Of a stretch of DNA of 64,000 nucleotides, positions 16,905 to 51,900 are shown piece after piece. Below the pieces are notes generated by a model that worked only from the letters and a program-made list of their open reading frames with translations, had not been told where the DNA came from and ran no database searches. Source of the stretch: Protoeuglena noctilucae (Eukaryota); assembly GCA_958009085.1 (NCBI GenBank), contig OY253673.1, positions 186,001-250,000 of the forward strand, written 5' to 3'. The position numbers and the translations under genes are program-made. Position 1 is the stretch's first letter, and each line of letters begins with the position of its first letter.

Positions 16905-17104
16905 NNNNNNNNNNNNNNNNNNNNNNNNNNNNNNNNNNNNNNNNNNNNNNNNNNNNNNNNNNNNNNNNNNNNNNNNNNNNNNNNNNNNNNNNNNNNNNNN
17001 NNNNNNNNNNNNNNNNNNNNNNNNNNNNNNNNNNNNNNNNNNNNNNNNNNNNNNNNNNNNNNNNNNNNNNNNNNNNNNNNNNNNNNNNNNNNNNNNNNNN
17101 NNNN
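16905..17104. other. Assembly gap (200 N) hiding the 3' ends of PABP and FAS1
   Basis: Run of N. Confidence 1.
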
Positions 17105-38447: not shown

Positions 38448-40911
38448 ATGGGCTCCGCGACGGTTGCAGCTTCAGCGGATAGAATGGTCCCGGGTGCCCG
38501 CAGCCTGACCTTCCAAGCCGCGCGAAGGATTGGGGTCCGTGCACATGCATCGCTCATCAGGTGCTGAGAATGGCTGGAGGGCGGGTCCCGGCCGCGGCGC
38601 GCCCGTCTCGGGCTCCAAGTCCGTGCGGCCACTTCGACGCAGGCAAATTCGAGGGGACGTCGCGACCAAGCGCTGCACGGCGCTGGAGACGACGGAACAG
38701 TGCCTAGCGCAGCTGAAGCAGGACGAGCTGCTCATCCGCGCGTTCATCTCTGTCCACCCAGGTGGGCCAGGGACCGGTCATGCAGCCCTACAGCCGCCAG
38801 GGCTCCCGTGGTGGTTCAGCGACGAGAGTATCTTCCTTCTGGTCCCGCAGAGAAGGCCAGGGAGCAGGCTCGGCAGGTGGATGCCGCGGTACAGCGGGGA
38901 GAGGGGGTGGGACCGCTGGCGGGGGTCCCCATTGCCGTCAAGGACAACATATGCACGCGGGACATGCAAACAACGGCGGGGTCCAAGGCGAGTGGCTAAG
39001 TTCATGCTTCATGTGCAAGCTGCACCTCCCTCGGCGCACCCCCGAGCATCACGCGTCCTGACGTATCCTACATCAGGTCGAGCAGTCATGCACTGGCATC
39101 ACTGCAGGTGTTGGAGGGGTACGTGCCACCATACGACGCGACGGTCGTGCGAAAACTGCGCGAGGCGGGCGCGGTGATCGTGGGGAAGACCAACATGGAT
39201 GAGTTTGGCATGGGGTCCAGCACTGAGGCTTCAGCGTTCCATCCAACCAAGGCAAGGGACTGCGAGGGGCCGCTCAAGCATTGCTGCCGGCGAGCGCCGC
39301 TGCATGTGCTCGCGTTGAGGACGAGAGAGCGCACCACGCAGCGCATTGCGCTGCCCGCCCTGGCCGTGAATGCGACAGCCCCTCGTGGTCGGCCCTGTCT
39401 GCAGAACCCACGCAGCACGGGGCGCGTGCCAGGGGGTTCGTCCGGGGGTTCGGCTGCGGCCGTGGCCGCCTCCTTCGTGCCCGCCGCCCTGGGGTCCGAC
39501 ACGGGGGGGTCCATACGGCAGCCTGCGTCCTTCTGTGGGGTCGTGGGCATCAAGCCCACCTACGGCCTCGTGTCCCGCCACGGCCTCATCGCCTATGCCT
39601 CGTCCCTGGACACCATAGGTCCCATGGCGCGAACCGTAGAGGACGCTGCCCTGCTTCTTGACGTCATCGCCGGGTGAGTGGGGCTGCGGAGGTCGGGAGT
39701 TGGGTGCAAGCAGGGACGTGTGCAGCTGCACGCGGGCCGTCCATTAGACCTTCTCATGTATATGTATGCCGCGGACAACGCAGCTCGGCGTACTGCTCTT
39801 CGCAGGTCGGACCCATACGACGCGACCTCCGCGTCTGGGAGCCGCAGCCCGGGCCTGGCCGCCGCCTGCCGCAAGGCAGAGGAGCTGTCCAGCCAGCCGC
39901 TGCAGGGCATGCGATTCGGTCTCGTCACGGAGACGATGGGGGAGGGCGTGGACGAGGGCGTGCAGGATGCGATCAGGTGCCCACACGTCGACCAACCCCG
40001 CCTTCACATACTGTCCTCATGATAAGCGTGCCCACGCCCATCTTATGCACTATGACGAGGTGGATGGTTCCCCGCGCAGGAAAGCCGCCGAGCATTTCGA
40101 GTCCCTGGGTGCGTCCGTGGAGGAGGTGTCTCTCCCGACCTTCGCCATGGGCCTCCCCGCGTACTACGTCATCGCCTCGTCTGAGGCCAGCAGCAACCTC
40201 GCGCGGTACGACGGCGTGCGATACGGCCTCCGGACGGACGCGGCGGACCTCGCCCAGGTGCAGCTTGTTGCAAAGACGTGTGCCCGATGCAACCGCCGTT
40301 CTCACTTCGTGCGGGTGTCTGCAGTGAATGCTTCGCTTCCTTGTGCCGCAGATGTACGGCGCGACGCGGTCGGACGGCCTGGGCGCCGAGGTCAAGCGCC
40401 GCATCCTCATGGGCACCTACGCGCTGTCTGCGGGGTACTACGACGCATACTACAAGCGCGCCCAGCAGGTGCGCACCCTGGTGCAGAGGGAGATGGAGTC
40501 GTCCCTCGGCACGTTCGATGCCCTACTCATGCCCAGTGCCCCGACGGTGGCGTACAAGTCTGGCGAGAAGACGGCCGACCCGCTGGCCATGTACAAAGGC
40601 GACGTCATGACCGTCAACGTCAACCTCGCCGGCCTCCCGGCGATCTCAGGCGAGTCGGAGTCTCCCTTGGCAATGCCAGGGACCCGGGCACCCGCGGGTG
40701 GTGCTTGGCTGTGGCTGGCACACGGCCCGAGCTGGCCCACACCCTCACTCCTGCAGTGCCGTGCGGATTCGTGGACTGCCCCGGGGAGTCCGAGCCCCTG
40801 CCCGTGGGGCTCCAAATCGTGGGGCGCGCGTTCGGGGAGGCGGCCATTGTGGGCATCGCGGATGCTTACCAGAAGACAGCCACCTTCGCCTACGATAGCC
40901 TACTTCGCTGA
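38448..40911 (+). CDS. gatA: Organellar Glu-tRNA(Gln) amidotransferase subunit A
   Basis: [92 protein letters not shown]. Confidence 0.97.
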
Positions 40912-40987
40912 AGCAGTCGCGAGAGCGCGTTTTCAACAGATCCCAGGAACCCCATGCCCGATACCATGCCACCGCCGACGCATGCGC

Positions 40988-43120
40988 CTATGCGACCATG
41001 ATGTTGTAGGACACGTAGGGGTAGATCTCATCGTTGGCCATGAGGCCCGCCCGCGCGTCCTCCGGCGTCGCGGCCCAGAGAGACGCCGAAGAGCGACCGA
41101 AATCGCTGGCCAGCACCGCCCGCACCTTGGCCTGCAACCGGGGGTGACGATGGGGTGACCGTCGCTCGCCCTCACTGGTAGCTGTGAGCGTGCCGCTCTC
41201 GCGCAGGCAGCAACCAGCGCTGAGCAAGAGGGACGGAACGGCGGCCGCCAGGTGTCGAGCACAAACAGAGCCCCATGACGCGACAGCTCTATGCAGACCC
41301 TCGCGCGCACCTCGGCCTTGTCGACCGGCTTGAGCACGGCTGCCTGGTACTGGGGCGGGAGGCCGTAGCGCAGGATGCTCTCGACGAAGACGCGGATCAT
41401 GAGGAGGTGCATGAAGCCCGAGAAGCACTCGGTGAAGGCCGAGGAGAGCCACTGCCGCAGGGACTGCTGCTTGTCGAGCATCTGCGACTGCAGGGTCTCG
41501 GGCGAGCGCTGGTCCTCCCCCTCCACGGGGGGCTTGTACTCGCGGACCTGCAGGCCCTTGGCGCGAGCCTTAATCTTGAAATCCTCCGCGATGCGCTTGA
41601 AGACCGTGACCTGGGGCCAGGGGCGACGGGCGGTAGGTGACGCCCGACAGCTAGCCAAGGCTGGCGTGGGAGAGCCATGACGGGGCAGGGCGGACGCAGC
41701 GGAGCGGGCGCGCGGTCGGGCGGTGCGATGCAATCGCACGGACCTGGTACAGCGAGTAGTCGTTGTCACTGGCGATGAGCTTGGAGCTCCCGGGGACCAC
41801 TCCGCTGCGAGCGAGGGGCGAGGTGCGGATGTCAGGGATCACGACAAGTGCAAAGATGCTTCTGCTTTGCTGTCAGGAACCCGACAGCCCTCGTCGCGCC
41901 TTGCCTGAACCGCTCAGAACCCCGCCCCAGAGACGCATCCACCAACTTGGTGTACGTGTGCAGGAACTGCGGGGGTCACCGGGAACCACGCATTGCAAAT
42001 CCCGCCCTGCATGTCGCCGAGCAGGGGCGCACGCAGCTCCCACCGCACCTCCTGCACGCTGTACTTGGCCACCACCACGTAGAGTGCCTGCAGGTTCTCC
42101 GTGTCCACGTGCGGCCTCCGGTGCTCCTGCGGAGAGAGCAGCCGGCGCTGAATGAACTTTCCACGGCCCGTTGCGCCCATCCCCTGCGTCGGTTCCTCCA
42201 CACTCGCCTCGAGGATGGTGTGCAGGTCCTTCACGACCAGCGACCCCTGGTGCTTGCGCGTGATCGCTGACAAGCTGCCTTTGAGCGAGTTGTACTGCGC
42301 GGGGGATCAGAGGCGGGTCCCGTCGCGCGGTGCGGCCCGACACTGCGTTGGCGCGGCTTCCAACCCGGCTCCCCTCGCGCACCTCCGCCATCTGCGCCTT
42401 CAGGTCATCCTCGAGCTTGGTGACTTCCTCCACGATCTTGTCCACAATCTCCCGGAGGTTCTTGCGCGGCGAGTAACGCGCCTCGTTCCACTGGAAGCCG
42501 CGGACAAACTCCTCCGTGGAGTTCCCGTCCACCTGCGAAACACGGAATCAGGGCGACGCAGATGGAAAATATATGTCGCGGACACGGGACGCCAGCGGAG
42601 AGCCGGCCGAGGCGGCACCGCATCGGCGCGCACGCCGCCCTGGCTCCCGAATCCACGCGGTCGGCCCACCCCTCCCGCCAGCCCGCACCGTCACGGCATC
42701 CTCCTCGCCATCCGGACTCAGGTCGATGAGCGTCCGTCGCATCTTCATCACCGCGCTCTCCACCGCCGCTGCGGGCGTCGCATAGGGGGGAGTTCAGGCT
42801 GTCCGTGTGCCGCGCTGCCTCCGCGCATCACGCGTGACAGCCAGTGCTTTGAGCCTACCAACGACGACTTCCGCCGGGGCGCCTGTACGATCGAAGGGTC
42901 TGCTGGGCGCCGGAGGAGGGCCCAGGGTGCGCTTCTCACCGTTAATCTTGACGAGGTCATCGGACAGCCCCAGCAGGGAGTCCAGCGTCCCGATCTTGAG
43001 GGTGGGCAGGTTGATGCTGGAGACATCGGCCAGGTTCTGGAACTTGAGCTTGCTCTGCAGCAAGTTGCGTGTGTGCCCCTGCGACTCCACCAGCGGCACG
43101 GACACGACCCAGTACACCAT
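40988..43120 (-). CDS. VHA-C: V-type H+-ATPase subunit C
   Basis: [71 protein letters not shown]. Confidence 0.96.
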
Positions 43121-43602
43121 CCCGGCGCCTCCGGATCCCCCTCGCGCAGCTGCCCTTGTCGCGCCCCCGAGTCCCGCTGCAGGGAGTGCCCGTGGCTCTT
43201 GGGAGAAAGAACTACGCACGCTTCGCCGGGACAGACGCCTGACTCGACCTTGCCGCGCACAGGTTCTCCAGACACCGCGTGCTTTGCGTCGCAAGGGCGG
43301 CGAGGCGCGGTCATTTGGGCCGAGGGCAGGCACTTTCTCTGGCAAGAGGGCTTCCCCAGCTCTTCCCCCCCGCCCCATCCGAAGCCCTCCTGCGATCACC
43401 GCGACATTCATCGGGTAACGGCCCTCCCGATTCGCAGTCTGCGGCTGAGACGCGCGCAGTCTCCTCGGGCAGGCCCGGGCAGCGCACCCTCCGCGCATCG
43501 GGGGCGCACGGCGCCTCTCTGCGGTTGTTTCAGGACCGCGTGTGACGCTGGGCTTGCGGGCATCGGGCCAGGGTCGGCAGGGGGGTCGAATTATCCCTCG
43601 AG

Positions 43603-46600
43603 ATGAAGTTCGGCAAGCGCCTGGCCGCCGAGGCCAATCGCAGGGCCGAGTGGAGCGAGTCTTTCGTCGACTACAAGCGGCTGAAAAAGGCCACCAAGCT
43701 GGATATCGGCGAAGCAGGCGAGGGCGACGCGCGAGCTTTTTTGACTTGGGAACCTTGCGAGCAGCCGGCCGCGGCTCGGAAGGGGACGCAGCGGGCGCTA
43801 TTTTAGCGATTGCCCGCAAGGGCCATGGACGCGCGTCGAGGATACCCCGGTCCCGCTTTGGATTCCGCCCGCCACCCCCCCTGCCTGCGCCTGCCGTCGC
43901 CCCGCGCGCCTGCAGCCCAGCCGGCGCGGCCCGGCCTTTGCGACCCCGTTTCGAATGCCTGGATCGCATGTGCGGCAGGACGGCCGCCGGCCTCCGCACG
44001 GGGGGGGCAGAGGAGGGCAACAACCAGCCGCGCCCGGTGGCATCCGAATGTCGCCCCGCCGACGACGGCGTCGCCGCCCTCCTCCGCAGACCTGTCGGGT
44101 AGCCTCTTCAATGCCGCCCTGGATGAGGAGATGGAGCGCGTGTCGCGCTTCTTCAAGCAGCGGGAGCTCGACCTCCAGGTGCCCCCTTGCCCGCGGAATC
44201 CGCGCCGTGGCGCCACCGGACCCTCCGCCGCGTCGCGTACGGCTTCCTTGCTTCCTCCTCGCGGCCTCGGCGATGGACGCCCCCCTATATCTCCGGCTGC
44301 CGCGCCGGGCCCGCGGGCTCTGCGCACAACGCCTCCTGGCCCCGCGCGACGCTGAGCGCGCGACGCCCCTGCCCCGAGCGCAGGCGCAACTGCAGCGGGC
44401 ACGGAACGACAGGAATCAGGTGCAGAAGTTCACCGCCGACCTGCACGACACGCGCAAGTTCGTGATGCTCAACTACATTGCCGTCGTCAAGGCCCTGAAG
44501 AAGCGCAACAGGCGAGCATTTGCGGCCGACATTGACGGGCGGAAGATTATCAAGCAGCCCGCTCCTGCTTGCCTGGCGCCCGCGCGCCGCGTCCGCGGGA
44601 AACGCGAGATGCCTCCCGAGTGCGAGGCGGCGGGAGGAGCGCCGTTGCGCGCCGCGCGCGAGGGCCGCCCCGCCGCGCCCGCAGGCTCATGGAGGAGGCG
44701 TTCGGTTCCCGCGTGGAGGCGGTGGACCCCATCAGCGTCCTGTCGCAGCAGCACTTCTTCACGAGCACCGTCCTCGCCCAGCTCTCGACCCAGGCCGAGG
44801 TGCTCTCCCGGGACGCCCTGCCCGACTGGAAGCTGCAGCAGCTGGGCATCCTCGACGAGTTCACGTGCCCCGTGTGCCTGGGCGTCCTCCACGACCCCGT
44901 GATCCTCTCGTGCGCCCACCGCTTCTGCTGGGGCTGCGTCGTGGCCCACTGCGCCAACCAGATGATCACGCGGCAGAAGGCCCAGGCGACCCAGGGCGGC
45001 GAGGTGCAGAAGGAGGTCAACGTCGGCAAGGCGAGCGACCGGCCCCGCGCCCCGCCGGGCACCCCAAGCGGGTTTCAACTCAAGCGTGTGCGTGTGCCAA
45101 CTTCCGCTGCCCCATACCCTACCGACCCTGCACCCGCCGCCGCATTTCCTGCAGAACCCCGAGTCCAAGGGTACCACGCGGGTGCCCGAGTCGCCCAACT
45201 CGCACCCGCACCCGTCCGCCACGCCCCCGGCGGTGTCGCCTCGCCTGGGCCCTGCGCATGGCGGCCAGGCCAACACGTTCGACTGCCCGGTCTGCCGGAA
45301 GCCGCAGATCGTGGACGACGCGGGCCTGCAGGTGGACGAGGAGCTGAGGTGAGCGGGGCTGCGAGGGGCGGGGCACGCGCGAGGGGTGCACGACAGACTG
45401 CCCCATGTCCCTCTCCTCACGTGCTGCCCTGCGACGGACCCCTCCCGCCCCCCGCCCACAGCCGCTTCGTGGAGCGCCTGCAGAACCTGCGGCTGACGCA
45501 GACGGGGCAGTCGGTGCCGGGCGCCGGCGCGGCGGACCGTTCGCGCGACATGCTGGAGAGCATGGTGTCGTCGCACGCGGCCCTGGTGGACACGCTGCGG
45601 GACCTGGTGGTGCCGCACCCCTCGCACTGGCTCTCCGAGGTGCAGTCGACGGCGCAGGGCGAGGCGGACCCGGGCGAGAGCGGGGAGAAGCCGGCGGGGG
45701 CCGCCATCACGATGGGCATCCGCCCGGCCCCGGCAGAGGAGCGCGGCGCGAACGGGGCGGCCGACGTGCAGCGGCCCCGGAGGGGGACGCTGGGCGCGCC
45801 CGCCACCGTGTCGGACGCGCTGCGGGTGCAGGGCCTGCACGGCCCCGAGGGCGGCGACAAGGAGAAGTACGGCGCGCAGGTGGACCGGCTGGGCGCGGAG
45901 CAGGCGCTGCTGCCCGAGCAGCGCCCGGAGCACCGCGGCAAGCTGACGGTCGTGCTCGACCTGGACGGCACCCTCGTGAGCACCTACACGGTCAAGCGCG
46001 CGCCGGCCGTGCCCCGGGGGTACCTGCGGGCGTACGTGGTGGGCAAGGGCGGCCCCCTCAACACCGACGGCGTCTTCGTCGTCGAGCGCCCGGGGTTACG
46101 CGAGTTCCTGACGTCCCTCTCCCAGGCGCGTCACGCCCGGCGCTTGCAGTGCCTCGGAGCGTCGCGCCACGTCGCCCGCAGCCCACCGTCTCCCCCTCCC
46201 CCTCGCTCCGCAGGTGGCCGAGGTGGTGCTCTTCACGGCCGGCCTGGAGGACTACGCCAAGCCCATCGTGGGTGCCCTGGACCCGGACGGCACCCTCTTC
46301 ACGGCGTGCCTGTACCGCCCGGCCACGGTCGAGTCGAAGTATTACCAGTGCGTCAAGGACCTCAGCCGGCTGGGGCGGAACCTGGCGCGCACAGTGCTGG
46401 TGGACGACACCCCTTTGGCGTTCCTCAACCAGCCCCACAACGGCATCCCGGTCTTCTCCTTCAAGGGCGATGTGGACGACCGCCTCCTGGGCGAGGCCAT
46501 CCTGCCCCTGATCTGGAACCTCTCCCGGCAGCAGGACGTCCGCCACGCCCTGCGCCGGCGCTTCCAGATGGGCCGGTGGTTCCTCTCCAACGGATTCGAC

Positions 46601-48482
46601 CTCAACAGCCTCGGCATCAGCCTCGAGCTCCCCGAGCCGCCCGCCCACGGTGCGAGACTGTTGTTGGGCCCTGCCCTATCCTATCCTGTCTTGCGCAAAT
46701 TTCGTCGCAGCCGCGTACCGGGCGGAGTGGCTGCCCCACCTGCCCCTCGCTCCAGCCACAATAAGACCTGACTCCGCACCGACCCACCCCCGCAGCGGTG
46801 TCCGTGAGCAAGCCCTCTGCGCTGGTGGAGCCCTCGACGATGACGCGCGACGCCCACGGCCCCGCGGACACCGAGTCGGCGGCGACGACGGCGACGGCGG
46901 CGGGGACGTCCAAGGCGGGCGACGACGCCACGGCCCCCGCGGCCCACGTGGATGCCGACGCGGACGGGGCCTTCGACATGGACGAGGACCTGGAGGTGAG
47001 CGATGCGGCGGTGGTTGCTGCGCTCTTCTATGGCAGTTCCGGATGCATCGCCGGGGGTAGGCAGGCGCACGGTTGCGCCCGTGTGTGGGTCGCGCCATGC
47101 TCTTCGGGACCCGCCCCCGCCACGCTGCTTCTTTGCAGGTCGAGGGCGGCCAGAGCGAGCCTCGCCTGCACCGCTCCAAGATCCAGCGCCTGGCGGACGC
47201 GCGGGCGGACCGGTCGGGCACGGGGACCTCCGCGTCCCACGCCGCGCCCCCGCTGCTCGTCTGCGACTTCGACCAGACGCTGCTCGACTACGACTCGCTG
47301 GGCCGCCTCATCGGCCTGCTGGCCCCCGACCTCCTGCGGATGTGGATGTCGGTCAAGCAGCCGCAGAACTTCATCCCGATGACCAACTCCATCTTCGGGG
47401 CCTTCCAGCGCCGGGGCATCTCGGCCCACACCATCGAGCACACGCTGCGCAAGATGGGCCGCATCGAGTTCCCCCGGGAGTCCGCCGAGCTGATCCGGGA
47501 CGCCGCCAGCCGCGGGTGCAAGGTCTTTGTGCTGTCCGACTGCAACGACTGGCTCATCGAGCTCATCCTCGCGGCGGCGGACGTCATGCCGCACGTGACC
47601 CAGGTCATCACCAACACGGCGCTCTTCACCCACGCCTCCCACCTGGACGACACCACGCCGCCCACCGGGGGCGCCCCGCGCGACATGGCCGACCCCGCCC
47701 TGCGCCTCGCCGTGTTCCCGAGGCACCCCTGGGACAAGCCGCCCCACGGCTGCCCCTACTGCCCCGCCAACCTCTGCAAGGGCGCCGAGCTGTCGGCCCT
47801 GCGCGCCGCCTTCCCGGGCTCGCCCGTCGTCTACTGCGGCGACGGCGCCAACGACTACTGCCCCAGCCTGCGCCTGGGCGACGGCGACGCAGTGCTCGCG
47901 CGCAAGGGTTTCGCGCTGGACCGCCTCATCCAGCAGAGCCTGGGGGACGCCGTCTGCAAGGGTACGGCCCTGGGCGGCCTGGGCCCCTTCCACGCGGACA
48001 TGCGCTCCTGGTCGGACCACGAGGACCTCCGGAGCCAAGTGGGCGACCTCGTCGACGCCTGGGTGGCCGAGGTGAGCTCGGGGAGACCTGGCGAGTGCGG
48101 CGCTGGGCCGGGGGCGTGACTGCGTGGTGGCGGGCCCAGACGTAGCCCAGTGCATTGCCTTCACTGTCTCCGATGTTGGGGCGCTGGTGTGCAATATTGA
48201 GCCGTGATTAGTACCGGCGACCTGAGACCCCACCCTTTCGACCCTCGTTCCGCTCCCTGTGACGTGCAGGGGGAGAAGCGCAAGTCCCGCATCTCGGCCC
48301 AGAGCCAGAACCTGACCGCCGGCAACCAGCTGCCCGCGCACGCCCCCCGCGGCATGTCGCCCGTGGCGTCCCGGGGCGACCTGCAGGGCATGAGCGTCGG
48401 CAGCACCCCTGGGTTTGGCACCGTAGACGAGTCGGTCGCACCAGGCCGCGTGGCAGAGGCAGTGGTCGCCAGCGCCGAGTGA
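43603..48482 (+). CDS. SPX-RING-SCP/NIF HAD phosphatase-PHOSPHO1/PECP-type HAD phosphatase multidomain protein (~1105 aa, 10 exons)
   Basis: Exons 43603-43717, 44090-44178, 44384-44511, 44685-45030, 45155-45348, 45462-46125, 46214-46649, 46796-46995, 47139-48071 and 48270-48482 sum to 3318 nt and join in frame. Motifs: MKFGKRL/DYKRLKK/NYIAVVKALKK; CPVC..CAHRFCWGC..CPVCR; DLDGTLV..RPGL..VKDLSRLGR..LVDD; DFDQTL..LSDCN..NLCKG..GDGAND. Confidence 0.85.
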
Positions 48483-48929
48483 CGGGCCGCACGCGGTCTC
48501 ACTAGCCTTTGCTCTATCGTGTTCACGCCGCCCCCGCGGCCCCCCCTGTTGCCCACCTATTCCTCCCAAGTTGCCCCTCCACGCCGGCCCTCCACGCCGC
48601 CCCTCTGCGCGACCCCCGCGGCGAGTGGCGGCTCAACCCGTCTGCCCCGCCATTCGGCGATTTTTCGACCGGACTGCCGGCCCGCGGCGCCCGGGGCTGC
48701 GTGGCCTGGGCAGTGATCGCCTGCCCTGCCCTGCACAGACCGGTGCATCGATCCCCTGGGCACCGCTACGGGCATGCTCGCCCGCCTACCCTTCCCGGAA
48801 TCACGACTTTGAAGACACAGGCAACGAACGAAGCACCGGCAACAGAGCTTGAGCAACCCATGAGCCCCGGCAATTGAGCACGCCCCATTCAGCACGCTCC
48901 CTCCATCGGCCTTGTCCACTCGTGGCGTT

Positions 48930-51900
48930 TCACTTGTCCATCTCCGCCTGCAGGGCGCGCGCCGCGGTCGGCCAGCCCCGGTCCGCGTGGAAGGATCCCC
49001 ACGCGGTGTCATCCGCCGGCCGGGGTGCGTAGGGGCGGCGCGTGTGCTGCACAAACGGCGAGATGCCATCGGTCCTATGACCGCACCGCGATCCCTCTCT
49101 CGGCTCCCAGAACCCCCACACGCACGACATGACAGGGTGTTAAGCAGATGGGGCTGCCCGCAGCGCTGTGGCTTGGCATGGCCACATACAGGTCCGCCCT
49201 CTGCTACCCTCTCAAAGCTCACCTGCGCCAGCATGTAGTTGTACGTCATCTCTATCAGGCGCTTGTCGTCGGGGAAGGCCTCGCGAACCCTGCAGAGCCA
49301 ACGCCACCCAGGGTGAGTAACAGGGCCGTCACCCAAGCCCCACGCGTGTTCCAGCAAATCGCCTCATCTCGCGTGTGATTACAGACCTTCTGATGTCGCA
49401 CATAGTGTGAGGGGCGTCACAACGCACCGCGGCAGCCTCACCTGTCGTGCAGGGCCTGTGCCGCCTGGGGCGTGACCCCGACTCCGCGCTCGGCCAGGAT
49501 CTCAAACAGCGCCACGCAGACGGGCGCCGATCGAGCGCGGACGGCGGCCTTGTGGATCAACGACGTGGCGACGAAGAAGTGCAAGTGCAGGTCTCGCTTG
49601 CCCGCCGCCAGCCCCAGCAGCTGCACCACCGTGGGCTCCACCGCCTCGTCCGGGCCGCCCCGCTCCATCAAGTCCAGGCCGAGGTCCACGAGACTCAGCA
49701 GCGTCGTCGACATCGGGAACTCCGAGTCGTTCATGCCCCTCCCCTCGTCCATGTCCGCCCACTCCGTCCTGCCGCTGGGCGCGCCCTGGGGTAAACCCTC
49801 CACGCTCTCTCGGAAAACGTCCACGGCATCGAACCACTCCGACGTCGCCGACGCCAGGACTTGGCGCGTGCGCCGGGCTTGCTGTGGAGAAGGGGGCGCG
49901 GGTGCATGGTCGGGGGCGTGGGCAGTGCGGAGGCCGTGTGGCGGGCGGAATTGAATGTGAGCATGTTGGTACTGTCTGCCCTCCCTGCCTCAGAGATCGC
50001 TGTGATTGCAAACGGCTCTCGCTTGAGCTCTCACCGCCGTTTCAGCTGCCTCAGTCAGCGCACGGGTCAATCCGTCCTCGCCCCGCCCCTCGGCGCCTTC
50101 CCCGCCGGCGTCACGAGCGCCCCACAGCTGCTGGTGCAGGCGCTCGGGCGGCGCGGGGCCCGGGATGCTGCGGGGCACCGCGATGGGAGACGACGGCTTG
50201 CTTTGCCGCAGGACCAGGCGCCAGGGACAGGGGTGGCTCCTCAGTCCTCAGCAGGCCTTTCATATACCCGTACTGCCACCTCACCTCCGCTCTCTCAGCG
50301 CTCGATCCACTTCCACCCGCGGCGGCAGTGGCAGCTGCATCTGCAAAGGCAATACACTCGCAGTCACACCCTCCGCATCACCGACAGCGCCCCGCAGGAA
50401 GCTGCTAGTACCCGCCCGCTGCTCAAGTCTCACCTGCCCACCCAAATTGGCAGCGAGGTCCCCACCCCTGCCCCTCTGATGCGCGAGGTGCGCTTTCCAC
50501 CCGGTCAGCCTAGGCGGGCCCACGCCGCCCCACGCTGCCACGTCCATTGCTGATGTCGAGCCCCACACGGCCTCGTCGCCTGCAGAAGTGAAAGCATTCA
50601 CTATTGCTGGGCCATGGGCCATGGGCAAGGCATGGGCACAACACGCCAAGAGAGCGTTTGGAACAGCATGCAGACCCCCAACGGCACTCACCGCCCCGCG
50701 CCGCGTCCTCGTCGGTCCCCGTGCGCAGCCCCGGCACCGCGTACCCCAGCGCTAGACCGTGGAGGGCCATGCGCGCGCGGATGACCCGCACCCCGCACGC
50801 CACCGCCAGCATCCGCCACGTCAGCATCGTCTCTTCCACTTTCGACGGCATCGGCACCGACACCGACTGCGCCACCAAGTCGTCCGCGGCGGCCTTATCC
50901 CCGACCTGCGCGCCGGATGCCGCAGTTTCAGAGCCGCAGCCAGGACCCGTCTGCTGTGGCCAACGCAGTCACTGCAGCGCGCTGGCCCCTCGCCTTGCCA
51001 AACACCTCGGCCGCCGCAAGCAGGCACATGTACGAATCCTGGCCTTTCTTCTTGGGCTGCCGAGTGACATCGACGTAGGCCCCGGCAAACACCGCCCCTG
51101 CTGAGTCGACGTATTTGGCCTCCTGCGGACCAGACAACGGCAAGCGAGTCAATTGAAGGGAATGCAACGACCATTTGAAGCTACAGTGGTCAGACAGAGC
51201 GCCAACTGGCCACAGAGGGAGCCACCGTGCAGGGTGCGATGGGCCCGCCATCAACGCCCTTCGCTGGTGCAGCATGCGGGGCGTCGGCTGCTTTGACTGT
51301 CCTGCATGAGACGAGGACGCCGGCGCTCGTCGTCGTCTCACCTCGAGCAAATCCCGGATGCACTTGCGATTCCATTCCCACGGGCGCCCAGGCACGGGCC
51401 ATATGTACATGCGGATCATGGACGCTAGGTAGTTCTCGTCGGCCTGCATGTCGCGGAACGAGCAGGATATGAGAGAGGCAGGAGGACAAGTTCAGCCATG
51501 CACAGCGCAGGGAGTGTGTCGTCACAGCCGGGGCGAGCCGCGGAGCCGCCTGTCCCTCGCTCACACCGCAGGCACTGCGTCTAGTCCAGGCACTGAAGGT
51601 TTTGAATATTCAAATGCACTCGCCTTGACCCCCATTTCGGACATCTTGGCCTCCAATCGCTGCACCATGGACCAGTCGCCCACCATGGCGATGTTCAGCA
51701 GCATCTGCGAGGCACGGCGAGGCTCGACGCGTTTGGTTGGGAACGAGTCACACGGACAGCTTCGCAGATGCCGCGACGCCCGCTGATGCGCTGGGCTCTT
51801 TGGCAAGGACCTTGCCTGGGAGAAGTGCAGCGGTGACGGTGGCGGGGACACCTCAGCGATGCTGTCGAGCAGACGGAAGGCGTCCTCGTGCAGGCTCAGC

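Follow-up and report, generated by a model that had tools for sequence, protein, structure and literature searches.

Eukaryotes sense their phosphate status through SPX domains, whose ligands are inositol pyrophosphates. In the green lineage the textbook targets of these domains are transcription-factor repressors, transporters, the polyphosphate polymerase and the NLA ligase. Two groups of phosphatase have been known apart from this system. The SCP/FCP enzymes are phosphoserine protein phosphatases, of which the SCPs are stand-alone proteins of about 260 residues, and the known PHOSPHO1, PECP1 and PPsPase1 enzymes also stand alone and are induced by phosphate starvation. NLA is an SPX-RING ligase that ubiquitinates PHT1 transporters (PMC11528361, excerpt). 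In fission yeast Spx1, a protein of 470 aa, the inositol pyrophosphate-binding site and the RING are both required for IP8 signalling, and in Vtc4 and Gde1 ligand binding to SPX regulates the fused enzyme (PMC8749416, excerpt). Here we describe a gene on contig OY253673.1 of Protoeuglena noctilucae (assembly GCA_958009085.1), within a stretch of 64,000 nucleotides (positions 186,001 to 250,000, here called the window). It is one real gene for a single polypeptide with four intact modules: an SPX domain, a C3HC4 RING, an SCP/NIF phosphatase and a PHOSPHO1/PECP1-type phosphatase of the haloacid dehalogenase (HAD)-IB class.

Gene structure and transcript evidence

The SPX-phosphatase gene consists of ten exons on the forward strand (43603-48482), which join to 3318 nt, or 1105 codons and a TGA stop. 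The model was built by reading positions 43000-49200 and joining the exons by script, and the joined frame is uninterrupted by stop codons. The transcribed parts are as follows.

43419-43602, + strand: 5' untranslated region from the start of the RNA contigs, a 184-nt leader with no ATG ahead of 43603
43603-43717, + strand: exon 1, SPX N-terminus (K2, K5, Y24, K28, K32); then GC-AG intron 43718-44089
44090-44178, + strand: exon 2, SPX helix; then GT-AG intron 44179-44383
44384-44511, + strand: exon 3, SPX helix with the lysine cluster K104/K107/K108/R111, predicted to lie against NIF; then GC-AG intron 44512-44684
44685-45030, + strand: exon 4, last SPX helices (FFTS..LAQL) and the first six RING ligands, C172-C195; then GC-AG intron 45031-45154
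45155-45348, + strand: exon 5, long low-complexity RING loop and the last cysteine pair, C270/C273; then GT-AG intron 45349-45461
45462-46125, + strand: exon 6, a linker whose conservation is limited to the two nearest relatives, and the N-terminal part of NIF, with DLDGT at 45958-45972; then GC-AG intron 46126-46213
46214-46649, + strand: exon 7, C-terminal part of NIF (FTAG, K560, VLVDD) and the family-specific helix RRRFQMGRWF; then GT-AG intron 46650-46795
46796-46995, + strand: exon 8, Ala/Asp/Ser-rich linker between the two phosphatases; then GT-AG intron 46996-47138
47139-48071, + strand: exon 9, the whole Put_Phosphatase/MtnX-like HAD-IB domain (DFDQT at 47265-47279, SDCN, NLCKG, GDGAND); then GT-AG intron 48072-48269
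48270-48482, + strand: exon 10, a 70-residue tail that the aligned orthologues lack; stop TGA at 48480-48482
48483-48816, + strand: 3' untranslated region, to the end of the RNA contigs

Because the leader holds no ATG, position 43603 is the first AUG of the RNA contig. The RNA evidence consists of contigs, not reads, from four runs (X1-X4) of a single metatranscriptome study, and extra shorter isoforms may exist. X1 and X2 each gave one contig (3836 and 3834 nt) that extends from 43419 and 43421, respectively, to 48816 with 0 mismatches and nine joints. Allowing for joint ambiguity, these joints are exactly the nine modelled introns. X4 gave three shorter contigs with 8/9 joints, and one of them, 2261 nt long, links exons 7, 8, 9 and 10. 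X3 yielded only unspliced pieces within 43962-48625 (for example 46734-47270, which spans an intron), suggesting that DNA or pre-mRNA was present in that library. The fraction of sampled words of 43300-48900 present in four metatranscriptome runs was 0.55-0.64, and all of them were present in four runs labelled with one organism.

A preliminary description of the locus had joined ten exons in frame into about 1105 aa, and the X1 and X2 contigs carry this frame with all nine splices. The introns at 45349-45461, 46650-46795 and 46996-47138, which it had singled out for checking, are all GT..AG and are spliced out in X1, X2 and X4. It had also considered that transcripts might end near 46771, with a separate transcription start site for the second phosphatase. 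Instead, the X1 and X2 contigs continue through linker exon 8 to 48816.

Four of the nine introns (43718-44089, 44512-44684, 45031-45154 and 46126-46213) are of the GC-AG type, with the donors CAG/GCGAG or AAG/GCGAG. They are confirmed by RNA, and no GT..AG alternative for any of the four lies within the joint ambiguity. If it holds genome-wide, this share of GC-AG introns is unusually high. Some X2 and X4 contigs match about 25 bases of a GCG/GAC-rich stretch of exon 8 (46878-46903) and then diverge from the window; these loose ends are probably other transcripts that share the simple repeat.

The four modules and the family that carries them

The preliminary description had named an SPX domain with the ligand-cluster motifs DYKRLKK and KALKK, a C3HC4 RING after it, an SCP/CTDSP (NIF)-like phosphatase with an intact DxDxT motif and a PHOSPHO1/PECP1/PPsPase-like phosphatase with all HAD motifs. 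Profile searches and conservation bear out each of these assignments. Conservation was scored in an alignment of the window protein with 53 orthologues starting MKF or MKY, retained from 63 chosen long matches; the other 10, whose N-termini were truncated or extended, were set aside. None of the four modules looks inactive in this alignment.

Exon 1 matches Pfam SPX (PF03105) with an E value of 7.3e-07 (30.0 bits against a cut-off of 27.8), and exon 3 matches the C-terminal part of the same profile (E 0.052). A profile of ten orthologues recovered the solved SPX domains of rice SPX2 (3.9e-10), Vtc4 (8.7e-10) and XPR1 (3.7e-07), with rice SPX1 within that span. Ligand binding by SPX involves a KxxKK cluster on helix 4; the second ligand motif, YxxxKxxxK, is defined in PMC8749416 (excerpt). 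In the window protein Y24/K28/K32 lie in DYKRLKKATK and K104/K107/K108/R111 in KALKKRNR. K2, Y24, K28, K104, K107 and K108 are kept in 54/54 proteins, as is R111 when R or K is counted, while K5 is kept in 52/54 and K32 in 34/54. Judged by these residues, the window SPX domain keeps the basic ligand surface of N-terminal lysine, YxxxKxxxK and the helix-4 KxxKK cluster.

The eight zinc ligands of the RING (C172, C175, C187, H189, C192, C195, C270 and C273) are kept in 53-54/54 proteins. Exon 4, with the first six, matches Pfam zf-C3HC4_4 (1.5e-07) and zf-RING_UBOX (1.6e-07). The ten-orthologue profile matched the solved RINGs of TRIM proteins, TRAF6 and BRCA1 at 1e-07 to 1e-05, and COP1 as well.

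The Pfam NIF profile (PF03031) is split over a splice, with positions 1-52 on exon 6 (2.3e-05) and 53-160 on exon 7 (4.3e-27). The profile runs on without a break across this junction, an independent line of support for the GC-AG intron between the two exons. NCBIfam TIGR02251, called a dullard-like phosphatase domain although the model spans the whole SCP/Dullard group, is divided in the same way (1-57 on exon 6, 58-167 on exon 7). The motifs are DLDGT (457-461), FTAG (519-522), K560 and VLVDD (573-577). D457, D459, T520, K560, D576 and D577 are kept in 54/54 proteins and T461 in 53/54. Among solved structures, a phmmer search with exon 7 found CTDSPL (4.7e-17), SCP1 (9.5e-17) and CTDNEP1 (3.4e-12), then Tim50. 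The ten-orthologue profile ranked SCP2/SCP1 (8e-34) ahead of CTDNEP1 (7.9e-28), and the alignment spans the whole SCP catalytic domain. In a Foldseek search with an AlphaFold2 (AF2) model of the Picochlorum orthologue P0009, not of the window protein, the NIF domain was matched to SCP1 (E 2e-12, template modelling score TM(target) 0.78-0.81).

Exon 9 matches Pfam Put_Phosphatase (PF06888), the family of PECP1 and PHOSPHO1, with an E value of 3.1e-29 (102.5 bits against a cut-off of 27) over positions 2-230 of 234. Enzymes of this family hydrolyse small phospho-metabolites. NCBIfam TIGR01489 (MtnX-like HAD-IB) scores 80.8 bits, just below its cut-off of 81.55. All HAD motifs are present: DFDQT (767-771), SDCN (857-860), NLCKG (935-939) and GDGAND (958-963). 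D963 is kept in 54/54 proteins, D769, D858 and K938 in 53/54, D767 and D959 in 52/54, S857 within the range 52-54/54, and T771 as T or S in 53/54. A sequence search of exon 9 against solved structures gave 0 matches at E <= 0.01. With the last domain of the P0009 model, Foldseek found MtnX (2fea, TM 0.71), phosphoserine phosphatase (0.64-0.68) and 5'-nucleotidase III. A 340-aa protein of open-reading-frame style (P0104) in the representative library is 99.7% identical to exon 9 over 313 residues, indicating that sequence from the same or a nearly identical organism exists elsewhere, with its genes predicted by a prokaryote-style finder.

The four-part protein recurs well beyond the window. Searching with exon 9 among longer proteins gave 20 matches whose colinearity with the window protein extends from MKFGKRL through the final HAD motif; by precomputed Pfam, NIF and Put_Phosphatase are present in 20/20, a RING family in 14/20 and SPX in 7/20. 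When the ten-orthologue profile (alignment A1) was run against 1.84 billion cluster representatives, 828 matches were obtained at E <= 1e-30, with full-length ones on top. Pfam was scanned on 28 among the 150 matches listed (of 828), and RING, NIF and Put_Phosphatase occurred together in 10/10 long ones tested. SPX often gave only a sub-threshold Pfam match to its first 30 residues in the representative-library orthologues, which may be the reason that Pfam-based SPX surveys miss this family. The architecture search across algae that had been proposed was also made in a named database, where the profile found 120 proteins at E <= 1e-30. Both NIF and Put_Phosphatase are present in 95 of them, and among those 95 the result table lists a RING family in 75 and SPX in 32. 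The named sources, about 30 species, belong to the Chlorophyceae, Trebouxiophyceae, Ulvophyceae, Chlorodendrophyceae and Pedinophyceae:

Chlorophyceae: Volvox (2 species), Gonium, Astrephomene, Edaphochlamys, Chlamydomonas incerta, C. schloesseri, C. eustigma, C. sp. UWO 241, Haematococcus, Sanguina, Dunaliella (2 species), Scenedesmus, Tetradesmus, Raphidocelis and Monoraphidium
Trebouxiophyceae: Picochlorum, Trebouxia (5), Micractinium, Elliptochloris, Apatococcus (2), Myrmecia and Symbiochloris
Other sources: Ulva mutabilis, Tetraselmis chuii and Pedinophyceae sp. YPF-701

Full-length forms derived from transcripts come from Tetraselmis chuii, Dunaliella tertiolecta and a Trinity assembly. 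No streptophyte or mamiellophyte with the four-part architecture was found among the named profile matches, which with this method is weak evidence of absence.

The closest BLASTP match of the joined protein is from Pedinophyceae sp. YPF-701 (50.7% identity over 975 residues in a single alignment), followed by P0001 (45.8% identity). A FastTree phylogeny of the window protein and 33 orthologues groups it with the same two proteins (support 97 for Pedinophyceae sp. YPF-701, 100 for P0001). The tree recovers Chlorophyceae and Trebouxiophyceae, with Ulva on a long branch, and this topology fits vertical descent from a core Chlorophyta ancestor and a pedinophyte-like marine alga as the source of the window. 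A colinear four-part protein in so many species is far more than chance would give. By these sequence comparisons it is a conserved core Chlorophyta family, not peculiar to the Protoeuglena noctilucae genome.

The family is already present in public protein sets under automatic names ('CTD small phosphatase', 'FCP1 homology domain-containing protein', 'PSR2', 'Dullard-like', 'hypothetical'), and it is therefore uncharacterised rather than unseen. The four-part architecture is not described in the full-text literature searched, a scope that excludes supplements and the main algal SPX survey (Wang et al. 2021, Mol Plant, doi 10.1016/j.molp.2021.01.015), and no paper there pairs PF03105 (SPX) with NIF/PF03031 or Put_Phosphatase/PF06888. 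The excerpt of PMC8717665 lists algal SPX fusions without an SPX-RING-NIF-Put_Phosphatase protein and dates the RING class to later-diverging plants. Only SPX, SPX-EXS, SPX-MFS, SPX-RING, SPX-VTC and SPX-SLC are named in the excerpts of PMC11528361, PMC12526157 and PMC13573052. The preliminary description had placed the architecture outside the known SPX classes, while allowing that it might already be characterised in other algae. The first statement agrees with these published class lists, but the protein is not unique: it is present in other algae, where it carries automatic names and where no paper describing it was found. The published view has SPX-RING proteins arising only in later-diverging plants, which a chlorophyte SPX-RING family contradicts.

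Over-expression of PSR1 in Chlamydomonas strongly represses the E3 ligase 'XBAT31' (Cre09.g403500) and induces the C3HC4 RING gene Cre16.g681100 (PMC10413257, excerpt). Either gene might be the Chlamydomonas orthologue, as an unconfirmed candidate. By gene number Cre09.g403500 is near VTC4, and the SPX-RING-NIF-Put_Phosphatase family gives weak matches to the XB3-XBAT31 RING profile.

The SPX-RING cassette (MKFGKRL..YxDYKxLK..NYxAxxKxxKKRN..CPICL..CxHRFCWxC..CPVCRK) also occurs with other C-terminal modules in the representative library (P0166, P0188, P0187, P0184, P0121, P0165). Its partners are a protein kinase (554 and 552 aa), GDPD (977 aa, an MMETSP transcript) and a CCCH-like tail (644 aa), and it is also found alone (335 and 272 aa). 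With such varied partners the cassette looks like a portable sensor-ligase unit. A Protein Atlas search with the SPX-RING part gave a best score of 0.87 (below 0.9) for an SPX+RING cluster commonest in Haptophyta, which is a lead only.

Predicted SPX-NIF packing, function and alternative readings

The arrangement of the modules was modelled in the Picochlorum orthologue. AF2 of P0009 with alignment A1 gave a mean predicted local distance difference test score (pLDDT) of 64.5 and a predicted template modelling score (pTM) of 0.38. The SPX helices and the C-terminal phosphatase were confident, NIF was moderate, and the RING and linkers were below 50. Residues 1-190 (SPX) were then paired with residues 335-839 (NIF and the second phosphatase) as a complex in ESMFold2, with the alignment unused. 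Scores of 0.85, 0.80 and 0.85 were obtained, against 0.00 for the best of 3 controls. The mark for this score is reached by 51/78 solved complexes and 2/108 mismatched pairs; on eukaryotes the figures are 39/65 solved pairs without a like complex among older structures and 2/126 unrelated pairs. Agreement between the three runs is 71% of contacts or more, with a partner pLDDT of 78 or more.

In this model SPX makes all its confident contacts with NIF, and the C-terminal phosphatase contributes none. The NIF residues involved are 446, 467-470 (the edge of motif IV), 481-501 and 518-528 (RRFxMxxWF, the helix specific to the family); those of SPX are 3, 6, 113-127 (the lysine-cluster helix) and 152-173 (the FFTS..LA helix). 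In the window protein the predicted contact corresponds to F3, R6, K93, Y99, L130 and F136 of SPX and to D600, D601, R602, F629, M631 and W634 of NIF. Contact positions are more conserved than the rest of their domains, both in NIF (0.92 vs 0.70, one-sided Mann-Whitney p 5e-05) and in SPX (0.65 vs 0.48, p 0.005). The complex model supports, but is no proof of, binding between SPX and NIF.

The gene probably encodes a protein of phosphate homeostasis that acts as E3 ligase and phosphatase under the gating of inositol pyrophosphates, a function we infer from its modules. The protein would be a cytosolic polypeptide of 1105 residues, in which SPX and a long-loop RING are followed by an SCP/NIF aspartate-based protein phosphatase, a disordered linker and a HAD-IB small-molecule phosphatase. 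SPX would report cellular phosphate status through inositol pyrophosphates bound on its conserved Lys/Tyr surface. Packed in cis on NIF, it may respond to ligand by altering how active or accessible NIF is and how substrates are offered to the RING. The RING, like those of NLA and Pqr1/Spx1, would ubiquitinate proteins of phosphate homeostasis, for example phosphate transporters, and NIF would dephosphorylate regulatory serines of these targets or of proteins associated with them. As a tethered module, the C-terminal phosphatase would free phosphate from small phospho-metabolites (phosphoethanolamine, phosphocholine or pyrophosphate). It is knowledge of the families that would predict this ligand, these substrates and this direction of regulation. 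The preliminary description's 'InsP-gated hub' (InsP, inositol phosphate) may be correct, and the sole new support for it is the predicted conserved SPX-NIF contact.

Several points weigh against this functional assignment. The RING loop between C195 and C270 has 74 residues, beyond the classical limit of about 48, and the RING is poorly modelled, with pLDDT below 50 over P0009 residues 191-327. The full-length AF2 model, at a pTM of 0.38, provides no independent support for domain packing. The complex test relies on a single method, applied to the Picochlorum orthologue and not to the window protein, and segments of a single chain lie outside its calibration. Some of the extra conservation at the contacts would be expected anyway, since core helices and the catalytic motif IV (D577) are among them. 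Some models contain SPX-RING-NIF only: Chlorella variabilis (670 aa), Coccomyxa C-169 (561 aa) and Monoraphidium neglectum (669 aa). Further models that end right after NIF come from one Haematococcus and one Scenedesmus (NREL 46B-D3), the set ending after NIF being P0246, P0252, P0064, P0062 and P0248, and P0016 and P0024 are one family member split in two on a 7783-nt contig. The SPX-RING-NIF-only models may be either split annotations or real shorter forms. Mis-annotation that conceals the full architecture is a likely explanation for such truncated and split models. Shorter proteins matching the SPX-RING part of P0009 numbered 32, mostly fragments or split models of the same family, and 0/32 were named as land-plant proteins; on orthology with NLA this is weak evidence, as the method needs shared 5-residue words. 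Finally, contig depth cannot show regulation by phosphate.

A more far-reaching form of the gated ligase-phosphatase is tentative and, on present models, rather doubtful. SPX could be a built-in allosteric lid of the SCP-type phosphatase, and an inositol pyrophosphate at the helix-4/N-terminal surface, set by the model against the motif-IV edge of NIF, could toggle the protein between 'dephosphorylate' and 'ubiquitinate' on the same targets. It would then be the first protein phosphatase under direct inositol-pyrophosphate control and the ancestral hub of phosphate signalling in core green algae. SPX-RING, in turn, would be a sensor-ligase cassette that evolution has moved around, joining it in different protists to kinases, GDPD and phosphatases.

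The nearest solved relatives of NIF are the phosphatases SCP1/2/3 of the RNA polymerase II carboxy-terminal domain (CTD) (phmmer 4.7e-17 to 1e-16, profile 8e-34, TM 0.78-0.81), and the whole SCP catalytic domain is aligned. The protein could therefore be a transcription-coupled device, in which NIF dephosphorylates the CTD, or a transcription or termination factor, under the gating of SPX-bound inositol pyrophosphate while the RING acts on nuclear targets. We consider this unlikely, because SCP-family enzymes have many non-CTD substrates and because the constant metabolite-type HAD-IB phosphatase (95/120 matches) is left unexplained, even though Spx1, also an SPX-RING protein, has been implicated as a transducer of the IP8 signal to the termination machinery (PMC8749416, excerpt).

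The protein might instead recycle membrane-lipid phosphorus. NIF would act as Dullard/Nem1 does on a lipin-type phosphatidate phosphatase, the C-terminal domain would act as PECP1 on phosphocholine and phosphoethanolamine head groups, and SPX would couple both to phosphate status. CTDNEP1 (Dullard) is the second-best solved relative of NIF (3.4e-12; profile 7.9e-28), but SCP beats it throughout (64-65 vs 50 bits, 120 vs 100 bits, TM 0.8 vs 0.6). The best NCBIfam model bears the dullard-like name, though it covers the whole SCP/Dullard group, and PF06888 is the family of PECP1/PHOSPHO1. Because this reading also gives the RING no role, it is improbable.

That neighbouring SPX-RING-NIF and Put_Phosphatase genes were joined by read-through or contig assembly is very improbable, for although the RNA support is contig-level from a single study and several public models end directly behind NIF or begin ahead of it (P0246, P0252, P0064, P0062, P0016/P0024), both introns around the 200-nt linker exon are spliced in frame in X1, X2 and X4, colinear fusions recur in 95/120 matches, transcript-derived ones included, and the joined frame has no stop codon.

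A conserved chlorophyte combination of E3 ligase, protein phosphatase and metabolite phosphatase on one SPX domain adds a missing SPX class, and it offers a directly testable route by which inositol pyrophosphates could control protein phosphorylation. The hypothesis is genetically testable, since orthologues are present in Picochlorum, Dunaliella, Haematococcus, Ulva and near relatives of Chlamydomonas reinhardtii. It also has a bearing on phosphorus recovery in microalgae and on their luxury uptake.

The window has a G+C content of 67%. By Pfam, the neighbours are ordinary housekeeping genes (V-ATPase subunit C, amidase, ribosomal L18, LMBR1-like, ABC transporter, Fis1, an RRM protein, ATG7 and PRKCSH), and no phosphate gene cluster was found among the window neighbours of the SPX gene. 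The gene for V-ATPase subunit C (40936-43130, - strand) diverges upstream of the SPX gene, with about 470 bp between the start regions, and its 3' end overlaps that of the amidase gene (39000-41155, + strand). An assembly gap of 200 N lies at 16905-17104.

Comparison with known systems

The N-terminal part of the algal protein resembles Arabidopsis NLA/BAH1 and fission-yeast Spx1/Pqr1, in which an N-terminal SPX with YxxxKxxxK and KxxKK is followed by a C3HC4 RING. Unlike NLA and Spx1, which end after the RING, it has a 74-residue RING loop and adds about 830 residues with two phosphatase domains. Because of this extension past the RING, it is a variant and not a plain member of the SPX-RING class.

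The NIF module resembles human SCP1/CTDSP1, CTDSP2 and CTDSPL over the whole catalytic domain, with the DxDxT, T, K and DD motifs and, in the P0009 model, a fold that agrees at TM 0.78-0.81. In contrast to the stand-alone SCPs, it sits between a RING and a second phosphatase and bears a C-terminal helix, RRFxMxxWF, predicted to touch SPX. The last module resembles PHOSPHO1, plant PECP1 and PPsPase1, with PF06888 matched over 2-230 of 234, four HAD motifs and a cysteine pair before NLCKG, and its P0009 model is nearest to MtnX (2fea). Unlike those stand-alone enzymes, it is the C-terminal module of an SPX-RING protein.

In joining SPX to a catalytic module of phosphate metabolism, the protein resembles Vtc4 (SPX-polyphosphate polymerase) and Gde1 (SPX-ankyrin-GDPD). 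Those proteins carry one enzyme per SPX domain, whereas the algal protein has three predicted activities, an E3 ligase and two phosphatases.

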